From: an uncultured Bacteroidales bacterium
GTDB lineage: Bacteria; Bacteroidota; Bacteroidia; Bacteroidales; Bacteroidaceae
Length of the DNA stretch: 64,000 nt
Reading direction: 5' to 3'
Assembly: GCA_902788275.1 (NCBI GenBank)
Contig: CADAJV010000005.1
Span: 40,609-104,608, forward strand
The position numbers and the translations under genes were made by a program. Shown piece after piece: positions 1,150 to 54,158 of this stretch. Within the stretch, counting starts at the first letter, position 1. Each line of letters begins with the position of its first letter. Below the pieces are notes generated by a model that saw nothing but the letters and a program-made list of their open reading frames with translations, was not told the origin of the DNA and made no database searches.

Positions 1150-1152
1150 GTA

Positions 1153-1257
1153 AGAATTGAAGAATGGAAGAATTGAAGAATTGAAGAATGGAAGAATGGA
1201 AAAGTTGAAAAGTTGAAAAATTGCAATTTCAATCCTTCCGTTCTTCAACTTTTTAAA
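1153..1257. repeat. GAATTGAA/GAATGGAA tandem array folding back on its own reverse complement (centre TTGCAA at 1221-1226)
   Basis: Direct reading: gaattgaagaatggaagaattgaagaattgaagaatggaa...ttgcaa...ttcaatccttccgttcttcaac. Confidence 0.85.
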
Positions 1258-1267
1258 CTCTGTAATA

Positions 1268-1585: not shown

Positions 1586-1592
1586 AAAAGTA

Positions 1593-1713
1593 GTTAAGAA
1601 GTTAAGCCAATAGTCAGATTTCTGAAAAATTTTTGGTAACTCCTAACTCCTAACTCCTAACTCCTAACTCCTAACTCCTAACTCCTAACTCCTCACTCCT
1701 CACTCCTCACTCC
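1593..1713. repeat. GTTAAGAA short array plus junction (1593-1615), then 8x TAACTCC + 3x TCACTCC heptamer array (1637-1713) ending 6 nt before the pntB ATG
   Basis: Counted directly: 11 consecutive heptamers, 77 bp. Confidence 0.9.
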
Positions 1714-1719
1714 TTAGTC

Positions 1720-3357: not shown

Positions 3358-3505
3358 AGAGCCTTGAAAAAAAATTTAACTCCGTGGAAAAATAATCTAA
3401 CTCCGTGGAAAAAAAATCTAAGAGCCTTGAGCCGTCATTTTCAAGGCTCTTAGATTTCATTTCGAGGCTCTTAGTTTGCGTTTCGAGGCTCTTAGTTTGC
3501 GTTTC
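3358..3505 (+). repeat. 'TCTAAGAGCC word' element, copy 1
   Basis: 2x CTAACTCCGTGGAAAAA, a central palindrome TCTAAGAGCCTTGAGCCGTCATTTTCAAGGCTCTTAGA, and 2x TTTCGAGGCTCTTAGTTTGCG (3460-3480, 3481-3501). About 85% identical by eye to the reverse complement of 54192-54313. Confidence 0.85.
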
Positions 3506-3510
3506 CTTGG

Positions 3511-3563
3511 GGTTAGTTTAGAAGTTTAGAAGTTAAGAAGTTAAGCCGTTAGTCAAGACTATG
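3511..3563. repeat. GAAGTTWA array plus junction motif GCCGTTAGTCAAGACTATG
   Basis: ggttagtttagaagtttagaagttaagaagttaagccgttagtcaagactatg. Confidence 0.85.
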
Positions 3564-3640
3564 TCGCTTCGCTCTCACCTCCGCTTTTCGTGCTCCGCTT
3601 CGCGACAGCACTGCTTCGGTTCGCGATACCTTCGGCATTC
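3562..3640 (+). repeat. GCTTCGCTCTC...CCTTCGGCATT core element, copy A (candidate structured RNA)
   Basis: Shares its 5' end TGYCGCTTCGCTCTC and 3' end TCGCGATRCCTKCGGCATT with 14954-15141 and 54881-54962. Contains CTTCGG and GCTTCGC motifs. Confidence 0.75.
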
Positions 3641-3644
3641 GTCC

Positions 3645-3765
3645 TCTATCTCCTTCTATCTCCTTCTATCTCCCTCTATCTCCTTCTATCTCCTTCTATC
3701 TCCTTCTATCTCCTTCTATCTCCTTTTATCTCCTTTTATCTCCTTAACTTCTTAACTACTAAACT
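3645..3765. repeat. About 10x TCTATCTCCT decamer array (3645-3745), then CTTAACTTCTTAACTACTAAAC, which is the inverse of the 3511-3546 array
   Basis: Counted directly. The outer arms 3511-3546 and 3744-3765 are reverse complements and enclose the core element. Confidence 0.9.
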
Positions 3766-3866
3766 TTTTTCTTGGATTGCCATGTAAGGTTGCTGAAAAT
3801 TGCACATCTTTGGCGGTAAATGTGTAATTCCTTGGTGTTTTTTACGTGTGTATGAGAATTTATTCC

Positions 3867-4840: not shown

Positions 4841-5881
4841 ATGAATAACGTATTTGTATATTGCGAGATTGAGGGCCAGACGGTGGCTGATGTTAGTCTG
4901 GAGCTCCTCACTAAGGGCCGCAAGTTGGCTAATACCTTGGGCGTGCAGTTGGAGTGCATCTGCGCCGGCAGCGGGCTTGACGGGGTGGAGAGGCAGGTGC
5001 TGCCTTACGGTGTTGACAGGGTTCACGTGTTTGACGCTGAGGGTCTGTTCCCTTACACTTCCAATCCCCACACGGCTCTGGTGGTAAACCTCTTTAAGGA
5101 GGAGAAACCGCAGATTTGTCTGCTGGGCGCCACGGTGATTGGCCGCGACCTCGGTCCGCGTGTCAGCTCTGCCCTGTTCAGCGGCCTTACTGCCGACTGC
5201 ACTGAGTTGGAGATTGGCGACTTTGATATGAACGTAAAGAATGCCGACGGTCAGATGGAGAAGAAGCACTACGTGAATCAGCTCTATCAGATTCGTCCTG
5301 CATTCGGCGGCAACATCGTGGCTACCATCGTCAATCCCGAGCATCGTCCGCAGATGGCTACCGTCCGCGAAGGCGTTATGAAGAAGGAGGTGCTCGACCC
5401 CAACTATAAGGGCGAGGTTATCCGTCATGACGTGGCCAAGTATGTGCCCGAGACGGAGTATGTGGTCAAGGTGCTTGACCGCCATATTGAGAAGGCCAAG
5501 CACAACCTCAAGGGTGCTTCCATCGTGGTGGCCGGCGGCTACGGCATGGGCAGCAAGGAGGGCTTTGACATGCTCTTCGACCTGGCCAAGGAGCTGCACG
5601 CCGAGGTAGGTGCCAGCCGCGCTGCCGTGGATGCAGGCTTTGCCGACCATGACCGCCAGATTGGCCAGACGGGTGTTACCGTAAGGCCCAAGGTGTATAT
5701 CGCCTGCGGTATCTCCGGCCAGATTCAGCACATAGCCGGTATGCAGGACTCTGGCATCATCATCTCTATCAACAGTGACCCCAATGCCCCCATCAACACC
5801 ATTGCCGACTATGTCATCAATGGCACCGTGGAGGAGGTTGTTCCGAAGCTAATTAAGTATTACAAGAAAAACAGCAAGTAA
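4841..5881 (+). CDS. etfA: Electron transfer flavoprotein alpha subunit
   Basis: C-terminal FAD-binding region (VVAGGYGMGS, YIACGISGQIQHIAGM). Confidence 0.9.
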   Translation: MNNVFVYCEIEGQTVADVSLELLTKGRKLANTLGVQLECICAGSGLDGVERQVLPYGVDRVHVFDAEGLFPYTSNPHTALVVNLFKEEKPQICLLGATVIGRDLGPRVSSALFSGLTADCTELEIGDFDMNVKNADGQMEKKHYVNQLYQIRPAFGGNIVATIVNPEHRPQMATVREGVMKKEVLDPNYKGEVIRHDVAKYVPETEYVVKVLDRHIEKAKHNLKGASIVVAGGYGMGSKEGFDMLFDLAKELHAEVGASRAAVDAGFADHDRQIGQTGVTVRPKVYIACGISGQIQHIAGMQDSGIIISINSDPNAPINTIADYVINGTVEEVVPKLIKYYKKNSK

Positions 5882-5885
5882 AATG

Positions 5886-5917
5886 TAGTTAAGAAGTTAA
5901 GAAGTTAAGCCGATAGT
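5886..5917. repeat. GTTAAGAA x3 array plus junction GCCGATAGTA abutting the four-helix-bundle gene start
   Basis: gtagttaagaagttaagaagttaagccgatagt. Its inverse partner is at 6301-6400. Confidence 0.85.
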
Positions 5918-5918
5918 A

Positions 5919-6296
5919 ATGACTAACCAATTTCAGAATATTGTTGCATGGCAGAAGGCGCATGAATTTGTTCTTGTTGTGTATAAGACAACTGGCGCTT
6001 TTCCTGACAGTGAGCGTTTCGGGCTTTGTTCGCAGTTCCAGCGTGCAGCTGTCTCCATAGCAGCGAATATCGCTGAAGGGTACAAAAAACTAAGTAGGCA
6101 AGACAAGTTGCGTTTTTATAATATTGCACAAGGTAGTCTGGAGGAATGCCGATACTATATTATTCTTTCCAAAGACCTTGGTTATGTCAACGAATCAACT
6201 TACCTCTGTTTGTATACGACTCTTGAAGAGTGCAGCAAAACTCTCAATGCGTATTGCAAAGGTGTTGTTGACAATAATTTCAGCAATATTTTATAA
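5919..6296 (+). CDS. Four helix bundle protein (23S rRNA intervening-sequence protein / Avd-like family), copy 1
   Basis: AWQKAHEFV..., QFQRAAVSIAANIAEGY, GSLEECRYY motifs typical of TIGR02436/PF05635. Visibly more AT-rich than its neighbours. About 65% identical by eye to 22716-23084. Confidence 0.85.
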   Translation: MTNQFQNIVAWQKAHEFVLVVYKTTGAFPDSERFGLCSQFQRAAVSIAANIAEGYKKLSRQDKLRFYNIAQGSLEECRYYIILSKDLGYVNESTYLCLYTTLEECSKTLNAYCKGVVDNNFSNIL

Positions 6297-6300
6297 TTTT

Positions 6301-6400
6301 GACTAACTTCTCAACTTCTTAACTTCTAAAATCTCAAGCCTCAAACATAAAAACGGTAATGGCTTAACTTCTTAACTACTTAACTTCTTAACTTCTAAAC
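6301..6400. repeat. TTAACTTC arrays (two blocks) with CTCAAGCCTCAAAC spacer; inverse of 5886-5917
   Basis: gactaacttctcaacttcttaacttctaaaatctcaagcctcaaac...ggcttaacttcttaactacttaacttcttaacttctaaac. Confidence 0.85.
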
Positions 6401-6421
6401 TTTAAAAAAACCCAACCAACT

Positions 6422-8128
6422 ATGGCCAACTATTATAACGATGAGATAAAGTTTCAGCTTAACCACCCGCTGATGAAGCGTATCGTGGAGCTGAAGGAGC
6501 GCAACTTCGCTGACAAGGACCAGTTTGACTATGCTCCGCAGGACTTTGAAGACACTATGGACAGCTACGACCGCGTCATTGACCTGGCCGGCGACATAGC
6601 TGAGAATATCATTGCCCCCAACGCTGAGGACGTGGACGCTGAAGGCCCCCACTGTGAGAACGGTGGCGTGCGCTATGCCAGCAAGACCTACGAGAACCTT
6701 GACGCCACCGTCAAGGCTGGCCTCAACGGTGTGACTATGCCGCGTCGCTACGGCGGTCTCAACTTCCCGTGTACTCCCTACACAGCTATCAACGAGATCA
6801 TCGCCGCTGCCGATGCCGGCTTTGAGAATATCTGGTCGCTGCAAGACTGCATCGAGACTCTCTATGAGTTTGGCGACGAGGACCAGCGTCAGCGCTTCAT
6901 CCCCCGTGTATGCCAGGGCGAGACGATGTCTATGGACCTCACCGAGCCTGATGCCGGCAGTGACCTGCAGAGCGTGATGCTCAAGGCTACCTTCGACGAG
7001 AAGGAGAACTGCTGGCGCCTGAACGGCTGCAAGCGTTTCATCACCAATGGTGACAGCGATATTCACCTGGTGCTTGCTCGCTCGGAAGAGGGTACCAAGG
7101 ACGGCCGCGGCCTCTCCATGTTTATCTACGACAAGCGTCAGGGCGGTGTAACAGTACGCCGTATAGAGAATAAGCTCGGCATCCACGGCTCACCTACCTG
7201 CGAACTTGTATATAAGAATGCCAAGGCAGAGCTCTGCGGCGACCGCAAGCTTGGTCTTATCAAGTATGTGATGGCACTGATGAACGGCGCACGTCTAGGC
7301 ATCGCTGCCCAGAGTGTGGGTATCAGCCAGGCAGCCTACAACGAGGCTCTCGCCTATGCCAAGGACCGCAAGCAGTTTGGTCAGGAGATTATCAAGTTCC
7401 CTGCCGTCTATGAGATGCTGGCCAACATGAAGGCCAAGCTTGACGCCGGCCGTTCGCTGCTCTATATGACAGCCCGCTACGTAGATATCTATAAGGCACT
7501 GGAGGACATTGCCCGTGAGCGCAAACTCACTCCCGAGGAGCGTCAGGAGCAGAAGAAGTACTCCCGTATGGCTGACGCTTTCACTCCGCTGGCCAAGGGT
7601 ACCAACTCCGAGTATGCCAACCAGAACGCTTACGACTCTATCCAGATACACGGCGGCAGCGGCTTCATGCTGGAGTATGCCTGCCAGCGTCTCTACCGCG
7701 ACGCCCGTATCACCTCCATCTATGAGGGTACCACCCAGCTGCAGGTAGTGGCTGCCATCCGCTACATCACCAACGGCACCTACCTTAATATTATACGCGA
7801 GCTGGAGCAGGAGAGCGTAAGCGCTGAGATGCAGCCGCTGTTTGACCGCGCCAAGACTCTTGCCGACAAGCTGGAGGCATGCGTCAACGCTGTCAAGGAG
7901 GCTCAGAACCAGGAGCTGCAGGACCTTGCTGCACGCCACCTCTACGACATCACTGCCAACGCTATGATGGCTCACCTCATCACCCTCGATGCCAGCCGCG
8001 CACCCGAGCTCTTTGGCAAGAGCGCTCAGGTGTTCCTCAACCTGGCAGAGGCAGAGGTAGCAAAGAATGAGAAGTATATTGCCAACCTCAGCATTGAGAA
8101 GGTAGAACTGTATAAGCAGGAGGCTTAA
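6422..8128 (+). CDS. Acyl-CoA dehydrogenase (long form with C-terminal helical extension)
   Basis: ACAD N, middle and C domains (TEPDAGSDL, IYEGTTQLQ). Its conserved partners etfBA are upstream. Confidence 0.85.
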   Translation: MANYYNDEIKFQLNHPLMKRIVELKERNFADKDQFDYAPQDFEDTMDSYDRVIDLAGDIAENIIAPNAEDVDAEGPHCENGGVRYASKTYENLDATVKAGLNGVTMPRRYGGLNFPCTPYTAINEIIAAADAGFENIWSLQDCIETLYEFGDEDQRQRFIPRVCQGETMSMDLTEPDAGSDLQSVMLKATFDEKENCWRLNGCKRFITNGDSDIHLVLARSEEGTKDGRGLSMFIYDKRQGGVTVRRIENKLGIHGSPTCELVYKNAKAELCGDRKLGLIKYVMALMNGARLGIAAQSVGISQAAYNEALAYAKDRKQFGQEIIKFPAVYEMLANMKAKLDAGRSLLYMTARYVDIYKALEDIARERKLTPEERQEQKKYSRMADAFTPLAKGTNSEYANQNAYDSIQIHGGSGFMLEYACQRLYRDARITSIYEGTTQLQVVAAIRYITNGTYLNIIRELEQESVSAEMQPLFDRAKTLADKLEACVNAVKEAQNQELQDLAARHLYDITANAMMAHLITLDASRAPELFGKSAQVFLNLAEAEVAKNEKYIANLSIEKVELYKQEA

Positions 8129-8190: not shown

Positions 8191-8306
8191 TATAGAGGGA
8201 GATAGAAGGAGATAGAGGGAGATAAAGGGAGATAGAGGGAGATAGAGGACGATAGTCATGACTAACGGCTTAACTTCTTAACTTCTTAACTACTTAACTT
8301 CCAGAC
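8191..8306. repeat. About 6x GGAGATAGAG array, junction GATAGTCATGACTAACGGC (8251-8269), then TTAACTWC array ending CCAGAC
   Basis: Direct reading. 8251-8306 is the reverse complement of 8538-8575. Confidence 0.9.
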
Positions 8307-8308
8307 TA

Positions 8309-8501
8309 ACTCATACATCTCCGACTACGTTATCATACGCCCCCGCCCTTTCAGGGCACCCCCTCTATAGAGGGGGTGCCGCAAGCCGTTCTGCTCTTAG
8401 TTTGCCGGGAGCCGACTCCCCCTCTAAGATAGAGGGGGTGGCCCATCGGGCCGGGGGCGTATGATAACACAGGAGTATGATAACGAGGGGCGTATGATAA
8501 A
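8309..8501. repeat. MITE-like palindromic element with TATCATACGCCCCCG / CGGGGGCGTATGATA termini, copy 1
   Basis: Terminal inverted repeats are reiterated 2-3 times. Internal hairpins CCCCCTCTATAGAGGGGG and CCCCCTCTAAGATAGAGGGGG. Related copies at 10272-10487 and 43729-43908. Confidence 0.8.
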
Positions 8502-8520
8502 TCTCAAAGTTCAAATGAAT

Positions 8521-8636
8521 GGAGATAGAGGGAGATAGTCTGGAAGTTAAGAAGTTAAGTAGTTAAGCCGTTAGTCTTTCTTCTTTCGAACATTTCAAAT
8601 CTGTAAACGGTAAACGGTAAACTGTAAGCCGTAAAC
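8521..8636. repeat. GGAGATAGAG x2, GAAGTTAA array + GCCGTTAGTC junction, TTTCTTCTTTCGAAC spacer, 5x GTAAACG array
   Basis: Direct reading. 8563-8602 recurs as its reverse complement at 49598-49636. Confidence 0.9.
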
Positions 8637-10271: not shown

Positions 10272-10487
10272 GTATCATACGCTCCGTTTATTTTATCATA
10301 CATCCCCGTCTACGTTATCATACGCCCCCGGCAGCAAGCTGCCACCCCCTCTATCTTAGAGGGGGAGTCGTCTCCCTGCTTACCTTAAAGGCAGAATGGC
10401 GTGTCAGGCAAATAGGCAGAATGGCGTGTCAGGCTCCCCCTCTAAGATAGAGGGGGTGCCCTGAAAGGGCGGGGGCGTATGATGGTG
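10272..10487. repeat. MITE-like TATCATACGCCCCCG-terminus element, copy 2
   Basis: Three left-end reiterations, GCAGCAAGCTGC and CCCCCTCTATCTTAGAGGGGG hairpins, an internal 2x GGCAGAATGGCGTGTCAGGC direct repeat, and right end CGGGGGCGTATGATGG. Confidence 0.8.
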
Positions 10488-14953: not shown

Positions 14954-15141
14954 TGCCGCTTCGCTCTCAAAGGCTCCTGCAAGTTTCGCTCCGGCTTCGC
15001 CGACGGCAAAAGAGCCGCTCTCTCAAAGAGAGCATTGATCAAGAGCAATTTTTCGCTCAAAGAGAACATTGCTCGAAGAGCAACTTCTCGCTCAAAGAGA
15101 ACATTGCTCGAAGAGCAACTTCTCGCGATGCCTGCGGCATT
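14954..15141 (+). repeat. GCTTCGCTCTC...GCCTGCGGCATT core element, copy B, expanded by about 3 copies of a 35-bp internal tandem repeat
   Basis: The ends match copies A and C. TCGCTCAAAGAGAACATTGCTCGAAGAGCAACTTC occurs at 15053-15087 and 15088-15122, with a diverged copy at 15019-15052. Confidence 0.8.
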
Positions 15142-19442: not shown

Positions 19443-19519
19443 GCCTCTCCCTAACCCTCCCCTCAAGGGAGGGAACCCTGGCGCCAGAGTTCTCCCCTTG
19501 AGGGGGAGTTAGAGGGGGC
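19443..19519. repeat. Triple-hairpin element with CTGGCGCCAG core, copy 1
   Basis: Outer arms GCCTCTCCCTAAC / GTTAGAGGGGGC enclose CCTCCC-CTCAA-GGGAGG, CTGGCGCCAG and CTCCCC-TTGA-GGGGAG. Related copies at 54082-54158 and 59973-60049. Confidence 0.8.
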
Positions 19520-22653: not shown

Positions 22654-22704
22654 AAGAGAAGTAAGGAAAAAAGGAGAAAAAGGAGTAAGGAGTAAGGGAG
22701 TAAG
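22654..22704. repeat. GGAGTAAG-type array (SD-like UAAGGAG reiterated) upstream of the four-helix-bundle gene
   Basis: gaagagaagtaaggaaaaaaggagaaaaaggagtaaggagtaagggagtaag. Its inverse partner is at 23112-23160. Confidence 0.9.
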
Positions 22705-22715
22705 TTATTTAGTCA

Positions 22716-23084
22716 ATGACTAGTTCTTTCAAAGATATCATCGCGTGGCAGAAGGCTCACCAGTTTGTCCTGCTTGTTTACAAGGCAACAGCGTGCTTTC
22801 CCGATTGCGAGAAGTTTTCTTTGGTCTCTCAGTTTCAGCGTGCCGCGGTTTCAATACCTGCCAATATTGCAGAGGGATACCGCAAGGATGGTGTGGGAGA
22901 CAAACTCCGTTTCCTTAATATATCTCAAGGTAGCCTTGAAGAGTGTCGCTATTATATTTTGCTTTCCAAAGACTTGGGATACATCTCCGAAGAAACTTAT
23001 AATATTCTACAGGAAAACATAGAAGAGACAAGCAAACTACTAAACGCCTATTATACTGCAATACGCAGTAATCATGGAAGATAA
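22716..23084 (+). CDS. Four helix bundle protein (23S rRNA IVS protein / Avd-like family), copy 2, inserted between groES and groEL
   Basis: AWQKAHQFV, QFQRAAVSIPANIAEGY and GSLEECRYY motifs. AT-rich relative to groES and groEL. Confidence 0.85.
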   Translation: MTSSFKDIIAWQKAHQFVLLVYKATACFPDCEKFSLVSQFQRAAVSIPANIAEGYRKDGVGDKLRFLNISQGSLEECRYYILLSKDLGYISEETYNILQENIEETSKLLNAYYTAIRSNHGR

Positions 23085-23097
23085 TCAATCAACTTTG

Positions 23098-24807
<1,710 letters not shown>

Positions 24808-24811
24808 ATGA

Positions 24812-24878
24812 TAAGGAGTAAAGGAGTAAGGAGTAAAGGAGTAAAGGAGTAAGGGAGTAAGGGAGTAAAGGAGTTAAG
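24812..24878. repeat. GGAGTAAR array (about 8 units) immediately after the groEL stop
   Basis: taaggagtaaaggagtaaggagtaaaggagtaaaggagtaagggagtaagggagtaaaggagttaag. Confidence 0.9.
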
Positions 24879-24931
24879 TCGATACTCCGCGACTCCGCAA
24901 CTTTGCAACAATAAAAAACTCTGAGTCGAGT

Positions 24932-24971
24932 CCCCTCTATCCCCCCTCACGGGGAGGCAGAGGGGGCTTTT
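24932..24971 (+). terminator. CCCCTCT...AGAGGGGGC hairpin + TTTT (partial member of the triple-hairpin family)
   Basis: cccctctatcccccctcacggggaggcagagggggctttt. Plausible groEL terminator. Confidence 0.45.
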
Positions 24972-25145
24972 GTTCTCTTTTCTCTTTTCTCTGTTATCTG
25001 ACTCAGACAGGAACCCCTGCGGAGCCGGGTTAGGGACGGGGCTTGGAGTCAGAGGGGCTTCCCTTCCAAAAGAGTGCCGGCAAGAAAAATTAAACAGTGT
25101 AGATTAATTTTGGCTGTAAGACTGCGGAGTTATGAAAATAATCCG

Positions 25146-25153
25146 TATCTTTG
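25146..25153 (+). promoter_or_regulatory. Candidate -7 box TATCTTTG about 200 nt upstream of rubrerythrin
   Basis: Exact TAnnTTTG. If it is used, the two 48-bp CTTACTCC modules lie in the 5' leader. Confidence 0.35.
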
Positions 25154-25196
25154 CCCAAAGTTAATCACTGTTTTAATCCTCGGGTAGGGCAGTATC

Positions 25197-25327
25197 GGAG
25201 CAGCGAGTAATCAACTTACTCCTAACCTCCTTACTCCTTACTCCTAAAAAATAAGAACCAACTGGAGTTGAAGTCAGGAATTGCAGCGAGTAATCAACTT
25301 ACTCCTAACCTCCTTACTCCTTACTCC
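25197..25327. repeat. Two further copies of the 48-bp GGAGCAGCGAGTAATCAACTTACTCCTAACCTCCTTACTCCTTACTCC module (25197-25244, 25283-25327)
   Basis: Near-identical to each other and to 23112-23159. Confidence 0.9.
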
Positions 25328-25355
25328 AATAACTAATCACTAACCCCTAACAACT

Positions 25356-29538: not shown

Positions 29539-32500
29539 ATGAGACATTTCAGACATTTGCTGTGGCTATGGCTGCCTCTGCTGCTGGCCGCCCCTAAGAG
29601 TGCCCAGGCATCCGACGGATTTGAGACGGATGCCAACTTCATGGTTACCTACATGGGCAACGGAGTGATTCACTTCCGACTCCTGTTCCTCGACTGCGGT
29701 AAACTCAACTACTACATGACACGCAAGGACGGCGTGCGCAACGACGGTGTGCTGGTATATATGACCTACAACGACGCCAACGGCACTGCAAGAACAGTCA
29801 ACGCGTTTCAGCTCTATTGTCCGTCAAACCCCTCCGACGATAACAGCTATGCGAACATGAAGATTAAGAACATCCAGAAGGATGCCGTCTTGGTGATGAC
29901 TAACCCCCACTCTGGCAACCAAGACGCATACGGCGGATGTCCTATCACGGCCGACAACCAGCCTCACGACTATCAGGTGAAGAAGAGCACGGGCTACGGA
30001 CTGAAATACATAGAGTTTGATTACTACCTGCCCCCCTCGTATGCAGGACTTAGCATCAACTTCAACATCGACGGACCTACCGCCTCGTATGGCAAAGACC
30101 TGACCTACCAGCCATTGGTGGGCAATCCCGTGGTTATGCCCCATCTGCCCGACACATACATCAGCGACCCCGTGTTTATGCCCAGCGGAAAGAACATGGG
30201 ATACTACCAGATGATAGCATCCAACTCCACGGGCGAGAAAATGAAAATCACCAGTGTGACGGAGCTCGACAAAAACGGTAACACAGTGAAGGACATCACC
30301 AGCCAATGCCAAGCCGATGAAGATGGCTACGGCATACTGCTGCCCGCCAGATACTACACCTACTGGGCACAGGTGGATGCGCAGATACCATACAGCAAAT
30401 TCCATTTTGTCAACGTGAGGACTCAGCGCGTGACGCTGCAGGCATTCCACAACCCCGCCGACTTCAACCTAAGAGCCAACTGGGGCAACAACGGTTCATC
30501 GGTACTTACATGGAGTGTGCCCCACCCCGAAGAAGATGACGCCCTCTCTACCGACGTGCTCGCCGTAGAGCGACAGCTATATGACAGCAACACAGGCAAG
30601 GTAGACGACTGGGAGGTGCTCGACCAGGTAGTGATGGAGAAAAACAAGAGCAACTACCAATACACCGACTCCACCACGGGCTGCTACGGCACACCCGACT
30701 TTAACAGCGTGCGCTACCGCCTATACCGATACAGCATAGGCCCCGAGGAGAAATACATCTCCACTGCCGATATGGGCAGAAAGAGCACGCAGGTCAGCTA
30801 CAGGCCCATCAAGATAACATCTGCCACAGGCAGGGAAGGCAAGGTGACCATCAAATGGAGTGAGACAGGCAACGAATACGACGGCGTGAAGCGATTCCTG
30901 CCCAAGGATGCCAGGCTCACGCTTATACGCACAGCCCACTACTTCCGCAACGGGCAGAGAGAGAGTATTGAGACAGAGAAAGACATCACCGACAGCCTGA
31001 AAGCCGGGGCGCACACCATCATCGACATGGGCTTTGCGCCATGCGCGCAGTATGAATACGCCATGGTCATTACGCCCAACGACCCCGCCAGAGTGATGAA
31101 GCCCGATACCGTGAGGGTGCCCACCGTGATGGAACCCGTGACAGAGGTATACTCTTTAGGCAACTTCGAGGCTTCGATAGGCTATCAGGACAAGATACAC
31201 CTGACGTGGGACATCGACCGCACGGCATTCAGCGACGTGAAGCTGTACCGCAACACAGCCAACAGCAACTTTGACAATAACGACGAATGGGAGGAGATAC
31301 CGTTTGACAACAAGCTGATGTACTACGACGACTTCAGCGTCACTGCCGGCCTGACCTACCAGTATAAGTTGTCAGCCACATACGAGTGCACCAACGGAAT
31401 ACACACCCTCTCAGTCAAAGCCAAGGGCTCGCGCCGCACCACAGGCCGCATCTCTGGCTACGTTACGTATACCGACGGCACGGCACTCAGCGGCCGTACC
31501 GTATTGCTGCTCAACAACTACGGCACTACCGTAGGCAGGATGACCACCGACGATGCCGGCTTCTACGAATTCCCTGACGTGGAATACAGCAACAAGGCTT
31601 ACACCGTCAGTGTGCAGGGCAACAGCTCCGACTACATTCAGTCCTCCTTCAAGGTGTTTGTGAACGCCGACGAGCCGTTCCACACCGAGAAGAACTTTAT
31701 CTACACCAACTCCGTTGACATTGACGGATATGTATATTTCGAAAAGACCACAGTGCCTGTGTATGGCGCCGTGTTCAAGGCCGACGGCAAGGTAATCACC
31801 GACAAGAGTGGCAAGCCCGTCACCTCCGACAACGACGGCCATTTCACCTTCAAGGTTATCCCGGGCACCAAGAAACTGGAGGCATCTAAAGAAGGACACA
31901 TCTTCATGTTTGACGGCGTATACTCCGACAACAAGGGCAATGCCATCACCATCAAGGAGAACGTGGCAAGCCTCTACTTCTGGGACCAGACCAAGGTACG
32001 CACCGTAGGACGAGTGGTGGGCGGCCAAGACCAGGGCGACAAGCCGTTGCTGCTTGGCAAGTCGCAGAATAACCTCGGCGACGAGCTGCGCATAGTGCTG
32101 GAGCTGGAAGGCAACCAGCGTTCGTGGATGGTGAAAGACCCGCTGGATGCCACCTACGTCATTAAGCGCGACACCTTCCAGCACGAGGCAGCCGGCGCCG
32201 ACCATCTCAGCCGCATGATTACCGAGCGCCACCGCGTGGTGATAGAGCCCGACAAGCAGACAGGCGAATATATCGCCGACCTGCTGCCCACTCGCTACAA
32301 GGTGATAGAGGTATCGGCCAACGGCTATCCATCACTCTTCCAGGGCGGCAAGGTGTCGGAGATACTCGACCTCACCGACAGTCTCACCACACGCCAGATA
32401 GACGGCGACGCCAAGCGACCCTACCGCGCCATCTACTCGCGCATTTACAGATGCGAGCCCTCGGTGAGCATCTGCGAGACTACAGCCAAAAACGAGACGC

Positions 32501-35500
32501 TGCCCTATGTGGGCCGCAGCTCCTACGTGGAGAGCACTGAGCAGGGCGGCACAGTCACCGTGCCCATCTACGACGCTGCCACCAAGACCTATACCTTCGG
32601 CTATCCCGTGCTCGACGTAGGCAACCACTACTTCCGCATCAAGGCAACTGAGAACTATTACTACAACGGCATAGCCTCCGGAGTGTGCGACTCAGTGCCA
32701 CTGCGCGGCGGCAAGGTGAAGATATACGACGACTTCGCCGCTGAGCAAAGCGACACCCTCTGCGACCTCGCCCAGGACGGCACCGTAACGCTGCTCATCG
32801 ACGTGGCCAACACCGTGTATGACGTGGAGGGCACCAACGCCCTGCGCCACCTCGATGTTACTCTCGAGCATGACGGCCAGTTCATCGACGGCCAGAGTCT
32901 CAAGGCATTCGTGATGGGCTCTCAGAGCGTCACCGACGACGTGGTGAGTGCCGACTGCGTGCTGCAGCTGCAGGGAGTGCTGCGCGACCCACCGGGTAGC
33001 AAGAGCTACTCGTGGATTGACAGCGAGACAACCTACACCAGCGACTTCAAGTATGAAGCCTACGGCAAGATAAACCTCTCGATAGGCGTTGACATCACCA
33101 AGGGCGTCGACCTCATGAACGGTGCATACGCATCAAGCATCTGGACGGGCACGCAGAACAGCAGCGGCACAGCCATATCCATTTCGCCTAAGACAATACC
33201 CATCATCGGCGTAGGACGCACCTACGAGGGACACTCTCAGTTCACCCTCAATGAGCGGCTCCAGACAAGCGACGAGCCCGACCACGTGGGCGCAGGTGCC
33301 GACATCTACTACGGCTACGAACTCGTGGCAGCAGCCCGCTGCATACGCAATGTGAGGGCTGTCAACGAGACAACGTATAAGTATCTGAACAGCCTCGGCC
33401 TGTTCGACGGCTCAGAGGGAGCATGCCATCTCATACAGAAAGGCCAGAACGCCAACGGCATACCCTACTACCTCATCAGCGACTACGACTACTCGATAGG
33501 CCCCAAGGCAAAGTCCAACTTCCACTACACGCAGGACTACATCCTCAACACCCTCATACCCAAGCTGACGCAGATACGCAACAGTTATATATATAAAGGT
33601 ACGCGCGCGGAGGCTCAGGCCAAGGCCAACGCCACTATGAGCAATGTGTTCCTCTCGCTGCGCGACGAGAGCGACCCGCGCTTTGCACAGGACAACCTCG
33701 ACGACACGCTGCAGTATATCTCCATCGACCGCTACGACCAGTATCGCGACCGCCTCAACTACGAGGTCATCACTCCGGAGTATGTGCAGATACTCGGTCT
33801 GCAGAGCCAGCTGGCCGACAGGGCTATGATGCAAGACTCGGTGCGCATCATGAACCGCAAGATTACTCAGTGGCAGTATCTCATCGCACTCAACGAATAC
33901 GAGAAACTCAATGCCATCCAGACCATCGACCGCGTTGACCGCAGCACCATGGACTACACTTCCGGCACTCCCTACGAGGTGAAGGACAACAACTTCTATC
34001 TGGAGAACCACAGCGTATCGGGCGGCACAATGATTAACCACAGCGAGTCGCTCGCCACCCAGGTCATCGACGACTGGCAGGTGCCGCTGTTTGGATACGA
34101 CATCACCAATGTGGGGCAGGAAGAGAGCGACAAGTTTATCAGCAACCTGGTGAGCGGCATCATGAGTGTCGGCTCCGACGCCACCAACTCGATGGCTAAG
34201 AATATCAAGGCTATCGAGAAGAAGTTTGGCAGCGACCAGATAGCGCTCTATAATCAGGATACGATGAAGGTGTCGTTCAATCGCGACGACCTAGGCAAGC
34301 TCGACAAGATGAAAGACCTTGCCGAAAGCCTCAGCGGCAAGACTGACGTGCATGTCAAGGCGGGAGGCTTTGTGCTGAACGTGAAGATTTACCCGCAGGT
34401 AGAAGCTAACTACAATGTCACCAACAACGAGAACACCAGCACCACCGTCCACCGCGGTTATCAGCTGCAGACAGGTCCCGACGAACACCTAAGTGTCGAT
34501 GTATATCACGACGTGACGTCCATAGTGAGCTCCACCACCACTTCGGGCAAGGCGAAGGCGTCCAGAAAACTATCGTGCGGCAACTATATCTTCCGCACCC
34601 TCGGCGGCGCCACCCGATGTCCGCATGAAGCACAAGAGGTGACTCACTTCTACGTCCAGGGCAGCCCCATATCCAATGCCACGGCACAGGTGGAGAAGCC
34701 ACGTATCACCGTGGAGAAACATATCATCAGCGGCGTGCCCTACGGCGAGACTGCCAAGTTTAACCTCGTGCTCAGCAACGAGGGCACCGTGAGGGATGAG
34801 GGCAGCTTCGACCTCGTGCCTATCGACGCCACCAACCAGCTCGGTGCCTCGCTCTACATCGACGGTGCACCGCTGGGCAGCGGACGCTCGGTAGTAGTGC
34901 CTTTCGGCACCGGTATGGTGAAGGTGCTCGAGGTAGCCACAGGCCTTGTAGATGACTACGAGAACATACGTCTGGCGCTGCGCTCACAGTGCGACCCCTC
35001 GGTGGCCGACACTGTAAGTCTGTCTGTGCACTTTACACCCATTGCAAGCCCCATAGCCGTGATAACACCGCAAAACAAATGGGTGCTCAACACCAACTCC
35101 GCTCAGGACAGCCGCGGACGCTACTACCTGCCTGTGAGCCTCAATGGATTTGACGTCAACTTCCGCAACTTCGACCACGTGGAGTTGCAGTATAAGCAGA
35201 CCAACGAGCCCGAGGCCAGATGGACCAACCTCTGCAGCTACTATAGTAACGACAGCCTCTTTGCCAAAGCCGCGGGCACCAAGGCAATGATTGACGGCGG
35301 CACCATCACTACGTCGTTCTTCGGCGATAGCGACCCCGTGGAGCTCAACTACGACCTCAGAGCCGTGACATACAGCCGCCTGGGCAATGACTTCGTTACC
35401 AACAGTTCCGCTGTGCTCTCAGGCATCAAGGACACTCGCCGACCTGACATATTCGGCTCGCCACTGCCTGCCAATGGCATCCTCGGCGTAGGCGATGACC

Positions 35501-38500
35501 TCAAGCTGGTGTTCAGCGAGCCTATCAATGCTAACCGACTGCTCAGCACCAATAACTTCCGCGTGACGGGCGTGCCTAACAATACGGACATCAATATATC
35601 TACCTCCGTGGTGTTCACATCCACCGGCGGCTACCTCACCACCGAGGCCGAGCGTAACTTCGCCGGCGGCGACTTCACCGTTGATATGATGGTGAGGCCC
35701 GTCCTCAGGGAGAATACGCCCATGGAGCTGTTCCACTACGGCCCCGAGGATGACGGGTTCTCCTTCTTCCTGAACAAGAACGGGGCTCTGGCGGCCAGAT
35801 TCTACAATATCACCAGCGGCAAGACTGAGAGCAAAGTATTCACCGCCAGTGGACCGAAGGTTGACTGGAGCGTGTTCCGCCGAGTGGTGATGACCTACAA
35901 GGCCGAGGAGGGCGCGCCCCGCTTCTATATCGACGGGGTGGAGCAGAAGCTGACCGCCGCCGACCGCATTGAGACCTATACGGGTAAGGGTGTGCTCACC
36001 TTCGGCAAGGGCAACCGCTATGCCGTACCCTATGAGGGTAGCATGGTAGAGGCACGCCTGTGGACCAAGGCGCTGACGGACGAGGAGATAGCCGTCACCG
36101 ACAAGACGCTCTACGGCTACGAGGTGGACCTCTGTGACTACTATCCCATGAACGAGGGCATCGGCGAAGAGATAGAGGACAAGGCGCAGGGTGCCACACT
36201 CATCATGAAGAACGGCGTAAGCTGGGCTACACCCGAGGGACGCTCCCTCTATGTCAACGGCCGCAGCAACGTCCGACTCAAGCCCGAGATATTTGAAAAC
36301 TGCACCGCCACCAAGAGTTACACCCTGGGTCTCTGGTTCAGGGCAAACGAAAGCCTCAACAGCAACTTCGCCATCATGGCCTCAGGCATCGGCGACACCA
36401 CTGAGGTGGAGCCTGTCGACAAGCTCTTTATCGGTGTGAAGGACCATAAGCTCACGGTCAGCAACAATACTACTGCAATAACGATGGACCGCAGCTACTG
36501 CGACGACCAGTGGCACCAGCTCACCCTCGTGGTGGACCGCCCCGCCAACCTCGCCTCAGTGTACGTGGACGGTCAGCTCACCGGACAGGCGGCGGCCGCC
36601 AATATTGGCAACCTCTTCGGCAGCTTCTATCTCGGCTCATGCCAGTATCAGACCGACAGCACCTCCACCAATATCTACCGCATGATGGGCTATATCGACG
36701 AGATAACCCTGTGGGATATGGCCCTGCCGCAGAATATCGTGCGCCAGCGGTTCAACGAGGGCTGCGACGGCACCGAGCCCGGGCTGCTGGTCTACATTCC
36801 GTTTAGCGTGCAGGAAGACCAAATCATGGGCGGCGGCACCCGCATGGAGTTCTCCTCCAACTATTACCGCAACGCGTGGGACACCGAGACCCGGCAATAT
36901 ATGGTGGTAAGCAAGCCTGCCCTCATGGAGGAACCTGACGAGTTCATGAGATCCACCGCTACTTATGCTCCCGTCAAGGAGAAGGGCAAGGTGCGCGATC
37001 TCCGCTATAAGTTCATCACCAAGGACAACGAACTGATAATAGCCCTTGCCGAGCCAGCCAAGGACATCGAGCGCACCACCGTCAACATCACCGCTATGGG
37101 CATAGAGGACCTCAACGGCAATGAGATGTTGCAGCCCGTGCAGTGGTCAGCATTCATCAATCGCAACATGGTGCGCTGGTCGCAGCCCAGGAAGCGCGTG
37201 GAGATACCAAGCGGTATGGAAGAGGACTATGTGTTCACCGTCGATGTCCGCAACCAGGGCGGCTCCTATAAGAGCTATACCATCGAAGGCCTTCCTTCAT
37301 GGATAACCATCGACGAGGGTACCGAGGGCGACCTGGAGCCTGAGGAGGAGCAGACCTTCACCATCAGCATAAGCAAGGATATCAACTACGGCACATACGA
37401 TGAGGTGCTATATATCCGCAATGACGAGGGCCTCGTTGACCCCCTTGCCATCACCGTAGTCAAGAGCCCCGAGTCGCCCGACTGGACATTCAAGAAGGGG
37501 CAGCTGCGCAATATGCAGCTCTGCGCCCAAATAAAGATGGGCGATGCACTGGTAACCGACAAAAACAATATCATTGCCGCCTTCGACTATAACAACAACT
37601 GCCTCGGCACCGGCCATATCACCACCGACCGTGAGGGCAAGCCGATACTCTACCTCACCATATACGGTCAGGTGGATCAGGAGAACTACCTCCGCTTCCG
37701 CATGTGGGATTCGCAGAGTGGCATCACCTACCGGCTGCATACGCCCGAGCAGATATATTATATGCCCGACACCATCTGCGGCACTTACAAGGAGCCACTG
37801 ATATTCACCACCACGCCAGGCATCACGCAGAGCCTCACTCTCGTGCCTACATGGTCATGGATATCACTTAACGTGCGCAGTGAAAAGGCGGGCGACATCA
37901 ACCAGCTGTTCAAGCGCGGCAAGTGGCTAGGTGGCGACCAGCTCAAAGACCCCGAGAGCAAGGAGTTCTACAACTACGACCGCGGCACATGGTTCTACAG
38001 CAAGCCCGACAAGCCTGACTCGCTCACCTGTGAGCGCATGTACTTCCTCAAGAGTCAGAATGCCCAGACACTGCAAATAGAGGGTGAGGTGCTGACAGAG
38101 CCTGCCGACCGCACCATCGACATACACCCCGAGTGGAATTATATCGGATTCACGCCCGTGGTCAATGTGCCGCTGGAGGAAGCGCTGGCTGACTTCCTCA
38201 GCAAGGCGTCGGAGGGCGATATCATCAAGTCGCAGGACGAGTTTGCCTACTTCCACAAGGGTACCGGCTGGAAAGGCAATCTGCAGTACATGAAGCCCGG
38301 CAAGGGATATATGCTCTACCACACCCGCACCGCCGCCAGTCCCGACAGCCTCGTAACCTTTACCTATCCTAACAAGAACGCAACCGCTGGAGTAAAGTCC
38401 AAGGCATTCAATTCAGAGGACAGGGAACAGAGGAAAGACGATGCTCCGCTATTCTCCTGCCACAAGCTCACCACCATGAATATGATACTGCGTGCTGAGG

Positions 38501-38883
38501 GAGTGACTGCCGAGCCGGGCGACTTGCTATACGCCTATGCCGACGGTGAACTCTGCGGCTTGGCAGAGGCCGAGGCAGATGATGCGCTGGAGCAGACAGT
38601 ATTCTACATGTCGGTAGGGTGCGATAAGCCGTCACCCATCACCTTCACCCTGGAGCGCAACGGCCAGCTGCTGGGCACCGCTGCCGAGGCAGCCACCTAT
38701 CAGGCCAATGCGGTGGAGGGAACTCCCGACAGTCCCGCTACGCTGCGATTCGGTATCACGGCAGCCGCCTCTGCCTATGAACCCGATGTTTGGTATACTG
38801 TGAGCGGCATTCGCCTCGGTGAGAGCCGTCCTGCCACTCCAGGCATCTATCTGCGCAATGGCCAGAAAATCGTGGTAAGGTAA
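29539..38883 (+). CDS. Giant (3114 aa) secreted protein with carboxypeptidase-regulatory-like and two LamG-like jellyroll domains and a T9SS-type C-terminal tail
   Basis: Signal peptide. GRISGYVTYTDGTALSGRTVLL...DDAGFYEF (CarboxypepD_reg-like). FTVDMMVRP...MVEARLWTKALTDEEI and YTLGLWFRAN...IDEITLWDMALPQNIV (LamG-like). C-terminus WYTVSGIRLGESRPATPGIYLRNGQKIVVR. Confidence 0.8.
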   Translation: MRHFRHLLWLWLPLLLAAPKSAQASDGFETDANFMVTYMGNGVIHFRLLFLDCGKLNYYMTRKDGVRNDGVLVYMTYNDANGTARTVNAFQLYCPSNPSDDNSYANMKIKNIQKDAVLVMTNPHSGNQDAYGGCPITADNQPHDYQVKKSTGYGLKYIEFDYYLPPSYAGLSINFNIDGPTASYGKDLTYQPLVGNPVVMPHLPDTYISDPVFMPSGKNMGYYQMIASNSTGEKMKITSVTELDKNGNTVKDITSQCQADEDGYGILLPARYYTYWAQVDAQIPYSKFHFVNVRTQRVTLQAFHNPADFNLRANWGNNGSSVLTWSVPHPEEDDALSTDVLAVERQLYDSNTGKVDDWEVLDQVVMEKNKSNYQYTDSTTGCYGTPDFNSVRYRLYRYSIGPEEKYISTADMGRKSTQVSYRPIKITSATGREGKVTIKWSETGNEYDGVKRFLPKDARLTLIRTAHYFRNGQRESIETEKDITDSLKAGAHTIIDMGFAPCAQYEYAMVITPNDPARVMKPDTVRVPTVMEPVTEVYSLGNFEASIGYQDKIHLTWDIDRTAFSDVKLYRNTANSNFDNNDEWEEIPFDNKLMYYDDFSVTAGLTYQYKLSATYECTNGIHTLSVKAKGSRRTTGRISGYVTYTDGTALSGRTVLLLNNYGTTVGRMTTDDAGFYEFPDVEYSNKAYTVSVQGNSSDYIQSSFKVFVNADEPFHTEKNFIYTNSVDIDGYVYFEKTTVPVYGAVFKADGKVITDKSGKPVTSDNDGHFTFKVIPGTKKLEASKEGHIFMFDGVYSDNKGNAITIKENVASLYFWDQTKVRTVGRVVGGQDQGDKPLLLGKSQNNLGDELRIVLELEGNQRSWMVKDPLDATYVIKRDTFQHEAAGADHLSRMITERHRVVIEPDKQTGEYIADLLPTRYKVIEVSANGYPSLFQGGKVSEILDLTDSLTTRQIDGDAKRPYRAIYSRIYRCEPSVSICETTAKNETLPYVGRSSYVESTEQGGTVTVPIYDAATKTYTFGYPVLDVGNHYFRIKATENYYYNGIASGVCDSVPLRGGKVKIYDDFAAEQSDTLCDLAQDGTVTLLIDVANTVYDVEGTNALRHLDVTLEHDGQFIDGQSLKAFVMGSQSVTDDVVSADCVLQLQGVLRDPPGSKSYSWIDSETTYTSDFKYEAYGKINLSIGVDITKGVDLMNGAYASSIWTGTQNSSGTAISISPKTIPIIGVGRTYEGHSQFTLNERLQTSDEPDHVGAGADIYYGYELVAAARCIRNVRAVNETTYKYLNSLGLFDGSEGACHLIQKGQNANGIPYYLISDYDYSIGPKAKSNFHYTQDYILNTLIPKLTQIRNSYIYKGTRAEAQAKANATMSNVFLSLRDESDPRFAQDNLDDTLQYISIDRYDQYRDRLNYEVITPEYVQILGLQSQLADRAMMQDSVRIMNRKITQWQYLIALNEYEKLNAIQTIDRVDRSTMDYTSGTPYEVKDNNFYLENHSVSGGTMINHSESLATQVIDDWQVPLFGYDITNVGQEESDKFISNLVSGIMSVGSDATNSMAKNIKAIEKKFGSDQIALYNQDTMKVSFNRDDLGKLDKMKDLAESLSGKTDVHVKAGGFVLNVKIYPQVEANYNVTNNENTSTTVHRGYQLQTGPDEHLSVDVYHDVTSIVSSTTTSGKAKASRKLSCGNYIFRTLGGATRCPHEAQEVTHFYVQGSPISNATAQVEKPRITVEKHIISGVPYGETAKFNLVLSNEGTVRDEGSFDLVPIDATNQLGASLYIDGAPLGSGRSVVVPFGTGMVKVLEVATGLVDDYENIRLALRSQCDPSVADTVSLSVHFTPIASPIAVITPQNKWVLNTNSAQDSRGRYYLPVSLNGFDVNFRNFDHVELQYKQTNEPEARWTNLCSYYSNDSLFAKAAGTKAMIDGGTITTSFFGDSDPVELNYDLRAVTYSRLGNDFVTNSSAVLSGIKDTRRPDIFGSPLPANGILGVGDDLKLVFSEPINANRLLSTNNFRVTGVPNNTDINISTSVVFTSTGGYLTTEAERNFAGGDFTVDMMVRPVLRENTPMELFHYGPEDDGFSFFLNKNGALAARFYNITSGKTESKVFTASGPKVDWSVFRRVVMTYKAEEGAPRFYIDGVEQKLTAADRIETYTGKGVLTFGKGNRYAVPYEGSMVEARLWTKALTDEEIAVTDKTLYGYEVDLCDYYPMNEGIGEEIEDKAQGATLIMKNGVSWATPEGRSLYVNGRSNVRLKPEIFENCTATKSYTLGLWFRANESLNSNFAIMASGIGDTTEVEPVDKLFIGVKDHKLTVSNNTTAITMDRSYCDDQWHQLTLVVDRPANLASVYVDGQLTGQAAAANIGNLFGSFYLGSCQYQTDSTSTNIYRMMGYIDEITLWDMALPQNIVRQRFNEGCDGTEPGLLVYIPFSVQEDQIMGGGTRMEFSSNYYRNAWDTETRQYMVVSKPALMEEPDEFMRSTATYAPVKEKGKVRDLRYKFITKDNELIIALAEPAKDIERTTVNITAMGIEDLNGNEMLQPVQWSAFINRNMVRWSQPRKRVEIPSGMEEDYVFTVDVRNQGGSYKSYTIEGLPSWITIDEGTEGDLEPEEEQTFTISISKDINYGTYDEVLYIRNDEGLVDPLAITVVKSPESPDWTFKKGQLRNMQLCAQIKMGDALVTDKNNIIAAFDYNNNCLGTGHITTDREGKPILYLTIYGQVDQENYLRFRMWDSQSGITYRLHTPEQIYYMPDTICGTYKEPLIFTTTPGITQSLTLVPTWSWISLNVRSEKAGDINQLFKRGKWLGGDQLKDPESKEFYNYDRGTWFYSKPDKPDSLTCERMYFLKSQNAQTLQIEGEVLTEPADRTIDIHPEWNYIGFTPVVNVPLEEALADFLSKASEGDIIKSQDEFAYFHKGTGWKGNLQYMKPGKGYMLYHTRTAASPDSLVTFTYPNKNATAGVKSKAFNSEDREQRKDDAPLFSCHKLTTMNMILRAEGVTAEPGDLLYAYADGELCGLAEAEADDALEQTVFYMSVGCDKPSPITFTLERNGQLLGTAAEAATYQANAVEGTPDSPATLRFGITAAASAYEPDVWYTVSGIRLGESRPATPGIYLRNGQKIVVR

Positions 38884-54081: not shown

Positions 54082-54158
54082 GAGCCCCCCTCACCCCCTA
54101 AAGGGGAGGCCCCTGGCGCCAGAGTTCTCTCCCCTTTAGGGGGAGTTAGAGGGGGCTC
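54082..54158. repeat. Triple-hairpin CTGGCGCCAG element, copy 2
   Basis: gagcccccctcaccccctaaaggggaggcccctggcgccagagttctctcccctttagggggagttagagggggctc. Confidence 0.8.

Follow-up and report, generated by a model that had tools for sequence, protein, structure and literature searches.

Within a 64,000-nucleotide stretch of an uncultured Bacteroidales genome (contig CADAJV010000005.1; hereafter the window), we analysed a small gene-bearing cassette at positions 5882-6421, in the spacer between etfA and the acyl-CoA dehydrogenase gene acd. The cassette consists of a gene for a four-helix-bundle (4HB) protein and, on either side of it, short tandem repeats that are complementary to each other (Table 1). 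The original prediction, made from the sequence alone, had placed a 125-aa gene between these neighbours, had called it more AT-rich than either, and had estimated its product to be about 65% identical to a paralogue between groES and groEL. The data agree: the open reading frame (ORF) at 5919-6296 lies between etfA and acd, its GC content is 0.399 against 0.557 and 0.562 for these genes (0.39 against 0.72 at third codon positions, GC3), and tblastn aligns its product with the groES/groEL copy at 22716-23075 with 65.8% identity over 120 aa. A third cassette, between a CDP-alcohol phosphatidyltransferase gene and ispD, was found by a Pfam scan of low-GC3 ORFs; its 118-aa product is missed by tblastn with the first 4HB protein.

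Two family models recognise the product of 5919-6296, both above their curated cut-offs and over the full domain: PF05635 in Pfam, named "23S rRNA-intervening sequence protein" (E 6e-37; 126.5 bits, cut-off 33.8), and TIGR02436 in NCBIfam, named "four helix bundle protein" (E 2e-34; 118.1, cut-off 24). Its nearest solved structure is the pentameric XCC0516 (PDB 2gsc, E 6e-18), and the 4HB family is large, with 18,286 clusters at 50% identity (E ≤ 1e-3). Because the ratio of nonsynonymous to synonymous substitution rates (dN/dS) among cassette homologues is only 0.04-0.15, the 4HB protein is, as judged from its substitution pattern, functional and under purifying selection. PADLOC returned 0 defence-system matches for any of the three window 4HB proteins.

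The left arm starts 1-4 nt past the etfA stop codon, with a purine-rich (GAAGTTAA)n array of 8-base units to the left of the gene and its complement to the right. At 5885-5918 it reads GTAGTTAAGAAGTTAAGAAGTTAAGCCGATAGTA, as the original prediction had given it; the quoted reverse complement of the right flank likewise agrees with TTTTGACTAACTTCTCAACTTCTTAACTTCTAAAA at 6297-6331, and the second right-hand block, said to reach 6400, is an (CTTAACTT)n array at 6363-6402. An independent repeat search recovered two inverted pairs, 5889-5917 with 6302-6330 (29 nt, 83% complementary) and 5887-5911 with 6361-6385 (25 nt, 96% complementary). The duplex of left and right arms has an energy of -35 kcal/mol, against -14.0 ± 2.7 for shuffled sequences (z -7.9). 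Folding the whole cassette as RNA gives a z of -3.84, and in the minimum-free-energy fold 5887-5911 pairs with the distal block to close the structure. The predicted pairing of the flanks therefore stands, but the left arm prefers the distal block at 6354-6402 to the proximal one. Nor is the GAAGTTAA unit private to the cassette; it also occurs at gene-less intergenic sites. The arrays exceed what chance would give: the double unit GAAGTTAAGAAGTTAAG is present 31 times in the window with at most 2 mismatches, versus 0.01 expected. Strains with an identical 4HB protein carry 3, 4 or 5 GAAGTTAA units, giving spacers of 37, 45 or 53 bp.

Table 1. Positions in the window of the cassettes, their parts, and related gene-less structures.
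Feature	Position	Strand	Description
Gene-less hairpin between two pnt genes	1150-1267	+	(AAGAATTG)n, loop, complement; 27 bp; purine 0.79 in 5' arm, 0.21 in 3' arm
Gene-less hairpin, pntA-4TM/pntB	1586-1719	+	GTAGTTAAGAAGTTAAGCCAATAGTC, loop, (TAACTCC)n
Gene-less GAAGTTAA-type arm pair upstream of etfB	3515-3767	+	Encloses 197 nt including a (TCTATCTCCT)10 array
etfA	4841-5881		Upstream neighbour of the 4HB cassette
Left (5') arm	5882-5918	+	Purine-rich array GTAGTTAAG-AAGTTAAG-AAGTTAAG (5885-5909), then inner segment CCGATAGTA touching the ATG
4HB gene, 125 aa	5919-6296	+	PF05635 23S_rRNA_IVP / TIGR02436; co-oriented with etfBA and acd
Proximal right block	6297-6331	+	TTTTGACTAAC-TTCTCAAC-TTCTTAAC-TTCTAAAA; weaker alternative partner for the left arm
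Distal right (3') arm	6354-6402	+	CGGTAATGGC then (CTTAACTT)n; pyrimidine-rich; preferred partner of the left arm
Leader	6403-6421	+	A-rich, G-free, before the acd start codon; cassette-borne
acd, acyl-CoA dehydrogenase of 568 aa	6422-8128		Downstream neighbour of the 4HB cassette
Region downstream of acd	8192-8576	+	Second GAAGTTAA arm at 8543-8576
groES/groEL cassette	22654-23175	+	(GGAGTAAG)n left; 122-aa 4HB gene at 22716-23084; (CTTACTCC)-type repeats right
Gene-less GGAGTAAG-type arms downstream of groEL	24808-25330	+	43-bp helix; unit type and right-hand module as in the groES/groEL cassette
Third cassette	61377-61892	+	CDP-alcohol phosphatidyltransferase gene/ispD; (ATTGAAAA)n left, (TTCAATTT)n right
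4HB gene of third cassette, 118 aa	61452-61808		Distant subfamily

To place the cassette among its relatives, we scanned one genome per species for EtfA, which gave 80 orthologous loci, and measured the etfA-acd spacer in the 75 that allowed it. The spacer is at most 12 bp in 46 of the 75, including the five closest relatives (89-95% EtfA identity), and 20-45 bp in a further 6. Nine loci have spacers of 460-535 bp with a co-oriented 4HB gene, and two more 4HB loci lie at contig ends. Another 11 spacers measure about 100-225 bp (arms only in 5, other fillers in 6), and 3 of 860-900 bp hold an unrelated ORF. In L001, a sister genome with 95% EtfA identity, the spacer is 1 bp. On a neighbour-joining tree of EtfA, the 12 carriers of the 4HB gene, among them a Phocaeicola vulgatus assembly (L046), cannot be explained by fewer than 11 changes, with 'absent' reconstructed at the root. 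An ancestral, arm-free 4HB gene was looked for in the orthologous spacers and was not found, which upholds the original prediction of an inserted cassette. By this comparison of sequences, the 5882-6421 cassette is an insertion and the etfA/acd junction is a hot spot.

At all nine etfA/acd loci with both flanks known, the 4HB gene is co-oriented and stands between a left-hand purine-rich array and its right-hand complement; at the two loci ending at a contig edge, only the left array is present (including AAGGTTTTG). Array units and periods vary among these loci (GGAGTTA.., GAAGTTA.., GTAGTTAA, AGTAGTCA). The original prediction held that the bracket principle is conserved while the bracket sequence is not. 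Its first half is correct at all nine loci, but the sequences are not fully unrelated, the units being variations on a theme. The junction takes several kinds of insert, since unrelated ORFs replace the 4HB cassette in some Phocaeicola and Bacteroides genomes: in some of them the ORF encodes about 280 aa including a signal peptide, in others it is small and of the membrane type (L071, L074, L079 at 5017-5925, L031 and L038). Three sister genomes on the EtfA tree have differing occupants: L016 carries a 4HB cassette with GGAAGTTA-type arms, and in L017 and L018 a gene-less hairpin of 130 bp has arms of the AAGGTTGT type, which is otherwise found with the 4HB gene of L021.

Exact-protein look-ups placed the three window cassettes on many independent contigs, and this allowed the divergence of cassettes to be set against that of their hosts. 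Each of the three has copies with 99.4-99.7% identity in hosts that are 8-23% diverged in the flanking genes. At etfA/acd, locus L168 differs from the window by about 10-13% in etfA and acd, against 3 substitutions and a 16-bp array indel in the cassette. This low-divergence tract covers 5855-6441 and so includes the acd leader at 6403-6421; comparable TAAAAA-rich leaders follow the right arm in other cassettes. In L178 and L179, the 4HB gene of the groES/groEL cassette differs by 0.5%, against 19.6% for GH127, 8.4% for groES and 12% for groEL. For the third cassette (L187, L188, L191 and L194), the 4HB gene differs by 0.6%, against about 14% for the CDP-alcohol transferase gene, where it is on the contig, and about 22% for ispD, with a conserved tract at 61382-61896. 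Divergence picks up again about 5-30 bases outside the arms. As far as sequence comparison goes, these patterns show the cassette to be a unit of horizontal exchange between species, and they point to recent transfer. Near-identity limited to the cassette could reflect site-specific homing or recombinational replacement of a resident cassette. Within the window's species we found no presence/absence polymorphism, as every contig with an identical GroES carries the cassette. A phage vector is unlikely because 2.9 million viral contigs yielded just 6 distant relatives (34-47% identity).

The number of array units varies among strains in all three window cassettes, and in the third the stop codon of the upstream gene sits within the left array. 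Between the stop codon of the groES/groEL 4HB gene and the right arm (23085-23130), two unrelated modular variants exist among strains (window compared with L177, L178 and L186). The right-hand module is present twice in L186, and a further copy lies downstream of groEL (window 25250-25330).

We next asked how general the bracket is. A metagenome scan with a 4HB alignment yielded 80 further cassettes from gut, rumen, soil, sediment and freshwater, most of which have the same array-gene-array anatomy. Cognate flanks formed duplexes with z of -4 to -12.6 in all 11 cassettes with a correctly delimited ORF. Fixed 120-nt flanks with mononucleotide shuffles were noisy, and we used non-cognate arms as the control instead: the cognate right arm ranked first, ahead of 25 non-cognate ones, in 27 of 80 cassettes, with about 3 expected. 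Among the 49 cassettes with at least 18 matched arm positions, the 5' arm was purine-rich in 43 and pyrimidine-rich in 0. The common theme of the arms is AGGAGT, AGAAGT or AGTTAA on the left and ACTCCT, ACTTCT or TTAACT on the right. The original prediction had also raised the possibility that genes and arms move together, and this is borne out. Relative to the cognate value, cross-compatibility of arms is 0.99 at protein identities above 80%, 0.80 at 70-80%, and 0.55-0.60 below 60% (rho 0.27); on these alignments, the arms co-diverge with the 4HB protein. An inner core, GmCrwTAs on the left (G(A/C)C(A/G)(A/T)TA) with its complement on the right, was rejected as a defining feature and is regarded as lineage-specific because only about 19 of the 80 cassettes have it in the left flank and 13 in the right, mostly in Bacteroidales. 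Neighbouring genes are mostly close and co-oriented ('++' in 35 of 47), and confirmed junctions include gyrB/gyrA, gatA/gatB, adk/obg, and aldehyde dehydrogenase/eutN.

Arrays of the same kind are common in the window outside the cassettes. It contains 46 short-period arrays (7.2 per 10 kb), nearly all intergenic. The GAAGTTAA unit occurs at about 11 intergenic sites, all of them gene-less apart from the etfA/acd cassette. Much of the intergenic DNA of this genome is taken up by gene-less array hairpins. At least 7 arrays form such hairpins between co-directional genes, the 5' arm being rich in purines and the 3' arm in pyrimidines, and these include both junctions inside the pnt (transhydrogenase) operon and the region downstream of groEL. 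Array unit types group by locus within the window, and unit numbers of the gene-less hairpins differ among strains. At 8247-8268, (GGAGATAGAG)n and (TTAACTTC)n arrays lie head to head, and the point where GACGATAGTC meets ATGACTAACGGC resembles the left junction of the etfA/acd cassette, where GCCGATAGTA meets ATGACTAAC. The orthologous 7-9 kb of the five closest relatives contain 0 arrays, and 57 of 67 4HB-free loci are without them. The 4HB cassette thus looks like the gene-bearing form of a far more abundant hairpin population. In one strain (1519-1626 of L211, the counterpart of window 1586-1719), homogenisation has changed the right-arm units of the pntA-4TM/pntB hairpin from TAACTCC to TAATTTC. 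Opposite the left unit GAAGTTA, each changed unit has A-U in place of an A-C mismatch and G-U in place of a G-C pair, a single case hinting at pairing of sense-strand RNA.

The closest known systems are the intervening sequences (IVSs) of rRNA genes. These occupy helix 9, 25 or 45 of 23S rRNA and are excised from the rRNA precursor by RNase III without religation. IVSs with an S23p ORF occur in the 23S rRNA genes of Leptospira, Coxiella burnetii, Brucella and Xanthomonas (Ralph & McClelland 1993; Warrier et al. 2016, PMC4990558). The Coxiella element measures 428 nt, has a 28-bp terminal stem within which RNase III cuts, and carries upstream of the ATG an AG-rich tract and 2-3 tandem heptamers whose number varies among strains (PMC4990558). 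The resemblance to the cassettes is extensive. Both encode PF05635 proteins, the family being named after the IVS elements, and in both a sense-oriented ORF lies within a hairpin loop whose stem is made by the complementary ends of the element. Both have an AG-rich tract and short tandem repeats before the ATG, in strain-variable number (here 3, 4 or 5). Both are without a recognisable promoter of their own and lie in the sense orientation in a highly transcribed host unit, and both combine a GC content below that of the host with sporadic distribution and horizontal transfer. However, the cassettes sit in protein-coding operons (etfBA-acd, groESL and others) rather than in an rRNA helix, and this location outside any rRNA gene separates them by definition from IVSs; at the gathering threshold, Rfam found no rRNA or known RNA family in the window or in 20 related loci. 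The arms also differ, both being tandem arrays of 3 to more than 10 units of 7-12 nt instead of a single 28-bp inverted repeat. Moreover, the protein is under purifying selection here but decaying in Coxiella, and the cassette brings the next gene its translation leader. For IVSs, excision by RNase III is known; what the sequence shows here is a stem of substrate-like length.

Other systems share fewer traits. The Avd protein of diversity-generating retroelements (DGRs) has a homologous, pentamer-forming four-helix-bundle fold, and PDB 2gsc has been described as Avd-like (PMC10053308). Nevertheless, the cassette protein is not a DGR Avd because it scores below the curated cut-offs of the Avd models (31.3 against 40 for PF22296, 37.1 against 80 for NF033474) and no reverse transcriptase was found among the approximately 45 window proteins scanned; template and variable repeats are likewise lacking near the cassette. 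Repetitive extragenic palindromes and bacterial interspersed mosaic elements (REP/BIME) and miniature inverted-repeat transposable elements (MITEs) are also short, abundant intergenic hairpin repeats between co-transcribed genes, rich in copies in one lineage and absent from close relatives, and the gene-less hairpins resemble non-autonomous derivatives. The arms here, however, are tandem arrays of many unit sequences rather than one conserved palindrome, the window proteins scanned include no RAYT or other transposase, and the full-length form carries a 4HB gene in place of a transposase. We rejected a classical transposon or MITE because there is neither a target-site duplication nor a terminal repeat common to the three cassettes. 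Homing elements (group I and II introns, inteins) and integron gene cassettes have in common with the 4HB cassettes that near-identical elements fill the same conserved site in different species, that a promoter-less unit would be expressed from its host unit, and that structure is conserved over sequence, in the manner of attC sites. Unlike these, the cassettes have no endonuclease, reverse transcriptase, integrase, splicing or religation, and they are single and dispersed, with two arms each, rather than arrayed beside intI. A full-text literature search, with coverage that leaves out most subscription journals, returned no account of 4HB cassettes outside rRNA genes.

Taken together, we consider it probable, although by no means settled, that 5882-6421 is a selfish hairpin cassette of the IVS type, residing between two genes of a protein operon. 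The cassette would be transcribed together with etfBA-acd, given that no terminator-like site lies within 5882-6421 and that it has no recognisable promoter or terminator of its own. In the transcript, the two arms would zip into a double-stranded stem of 25-45 bp around the 4HB message. By analogy with rRNA IVSs, RNase III would cut this stem and release the 4HB RNA; the etfBA and acd messages would then be separate, and the one for acd would start with an unstructured leader. Because such a cut would free the flanking messages, the insertion would cost the host little, and the position of the A-rich, G-free acd leader inside the transferred tract fits an insert that limits harm to the operon. 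Building the arms as arrays would mean that any unit pairs with any complementary unit while slippage homogenises each arm, so that pairing would outlast both slippage and point mutations.

Several observations weigh against this explanation. We infer co-transcription, stem formation in vivo and RNase III cleavage alike. A strand test revealed no RNA signature, with 55 mismatches that would be G-U in the sense strand and 62 that would be G-U in the antisense strand (p 0.58), and sense-strand duplex energies were not consistently better than antisense ones. With no wobble bias in the sense strand, the complementarity of the arms could therefore be kept at the DNA level. A perfect sigma-70-type pair (TTGACA-18 nt-TATAAT, 12/12) lies at 6268-6297, in the 3' end of the 4HB ORF and pointing at acd, and a Bacteroidetes-type TAnnTTTG lies at 6294-6301, at the end of the same ORF. 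Both matches fall in the codons for ...VVDNNFSNIL and the stop, and may either arise by chance from the coding sequence or act as an outward promoter of acd; we treat them as coincidence because the other two window cassettes have neither. The arm lengths of gene-less hairpins change independently on the two sides. Finally, the near-identity between species comes from metagenome assemblies, where it recurs for three cassettes in several independent assemblies, including one contig of 242 kb.

The lack of wobble bias suits a DNA-level mobile element of the transposon or MITE kind, in which the arrays would act as terminal inverted repeats, either folding into a DNA hairpin or cruciform or serving as binding sites for a recombinase encoded elsewhere, and RNA folding would be incidental. 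Under this explanation, the many gene-less hairpins of the same unit types in the window would be non-autonomous derivatives. Polymorphic presence and absence, transfer as a unit with sharp boundaries, the inner core and its complement in roughly a quarter of cassettes, mostly from Bacteroidales, and an apparently 'empty' junction at 8247-8268 that resembles the cassette's left junction can all be read in the same way. We nonetheless regard such an element as unlikely. Comparison of filled with empty sites revealed a target-site duplication at no junction, and the ATG beside this left arm is not repeated at other cassettes. The window proteins scanned include 0 transposases, integrases or reverse transcriptases. 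A shared sequence-specific transposase is unlikely because the three cassettes of this one genome have three different arm sequences, and the purine-then-pyrimidine polarity (43 to 0) has no obvious reason at the DNA level.

Two further explanations assign the cassette to the host. The Bacteroidetes phylum rarely uses Shine-Dalgarno pairing, and G-poor 3' arrays could serve as unstructured translation leaders within a beneficial intercistronic module, whose REP/BIME-like hairpins would stabilise upstream mRNA or set cistron ratios and whose 4HB protein would be an RNA-binding regulator of the hairpins. Arrays are indeed nearly all intergenic, pyrimidine-rich and G-poor arrays directly precede many start codons, and hairpins lie between functionally coupled genes; strong purifying selection on the 4HB protein and seeming fixation within the species (all contigs with an identical GroES) are also in keeping with a useful module. 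However, the hairpins are dispensable, since arrays are missing from the orthologous 7-9 kb of the five closest relatives and from 57 of 67 loci without a 4HB gene. Distribution is patchy, composition looks foreign, and horizontal spread limited to the cassette is the signature of a selfish element, all of which makes a regulatory module a decidedly improbable account. An ancestral 4HB gene of the etf-acd operon, inherited vertically and flanked by ordinary slippage-prone spacer DNA, is one we consider scarcely credible. It conflicts with the 'absent' root state and at least 11 changes on the EtfA tree, with the 1-bp spacer of the sister genome, with a GC3 of 0.39 next to 0.72 in the neighbours, and with cassettes 99.4-99.7% identical across hosts whose flanking genes are 8-23% diverged. 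What speaks for it is the saturated synonymous divergence (dS) in some deep lineages at etfA/acd (2.7 for hb1 versus L081), and because of this saturation some insertions must be old, with vertical inheritance since then.

Beyond the IVS-type selfish cassette that we favour at etfA/acd, a broader reading is speculative and, in our view, rather doubtful. It holds that 4HB cassettes and gene-less hairpins together form an unrecognised class of mobile elements that homes to stop-start junctions of highly expressed operons, with the rRNA IVSs a special case and the Avd-like 4HB pentamer a mobility or maintenance factor. The pentamer might bind the periodic repeats of the arms or chaperone an RNA or DNA hairpin intermediate, and the gene-less hairpins would be non-autonomous derivatives.

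The window contains further repeats that are separate from these arrays. A GC-rich nested palindromic element, GTTATCATACGCCCC...CCCCCTCTA(N)TAGAGGGGG...GGGGCGTATGATAAC, is present in three copies (8329-8468, 10312-10483 and 43755-43900) and represents a second intergenic repeat family, with no relation to the AT-rich arrays. Hairpins of a further family, of the CCCCTCAAGGGAGGG...CCCTTGAGGGG type, occur at 19443-19519, 54094-54143 and 59975-60050, and GC-rich hairpins resembling them fill the etfA/acd junction itself in L055, L062 and L078. Tandem repeats of 21 bp (units like TCTAAGAGCCTTGA.. and AATCTAACTCCGTGG..) lie at 3366-3505 and 54191-54314; they are intergenic, in opposite orientation, and form local hairpins. 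A 35-bp tandem repeat (3.1 copies, 90% matches) at 15018-15126 is located just upstream of a NanM/SSF transporter gene, beside (TTCAAAT)5. A single ORF at 29539-38883 encodes 3114 aa, with CarboxypepD_reg the sole domain detected in its first 1000 residues.

By analogy of architecture, the array-flanked 4HB cassette looks like the protein-operon counterpart of rRNA intervening sequences. The nature of these sequences and of the protein that some of them encode has been an open question since 1990-93, in part because the organisms with known examples are awkward, the rRNA genes that hold them are essential, and in Coxiella the ORF is in decay. Here this architecture turns up within ordinary operons in Bacteroidales from gut and rumen, one of them a Phocaeicola vulgatus assembly, with the protein intact and selected, and the question thereby becomes testable in tractable bacteria. 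If true, the broader mobile-class reading would answer a 30-year-old question about IVS elements and S23p proteins. In genomes with about 7 short-period arrays per 10 kb, the arrays break assemblies, and many homologues are on contigs of about 1 kb. Thousands of genes annotated as ordinary "four helix bundle protein" genes may be selfish inserts, and insertions in groESL, gyrBA or gatAB may alter the expression of these operons.

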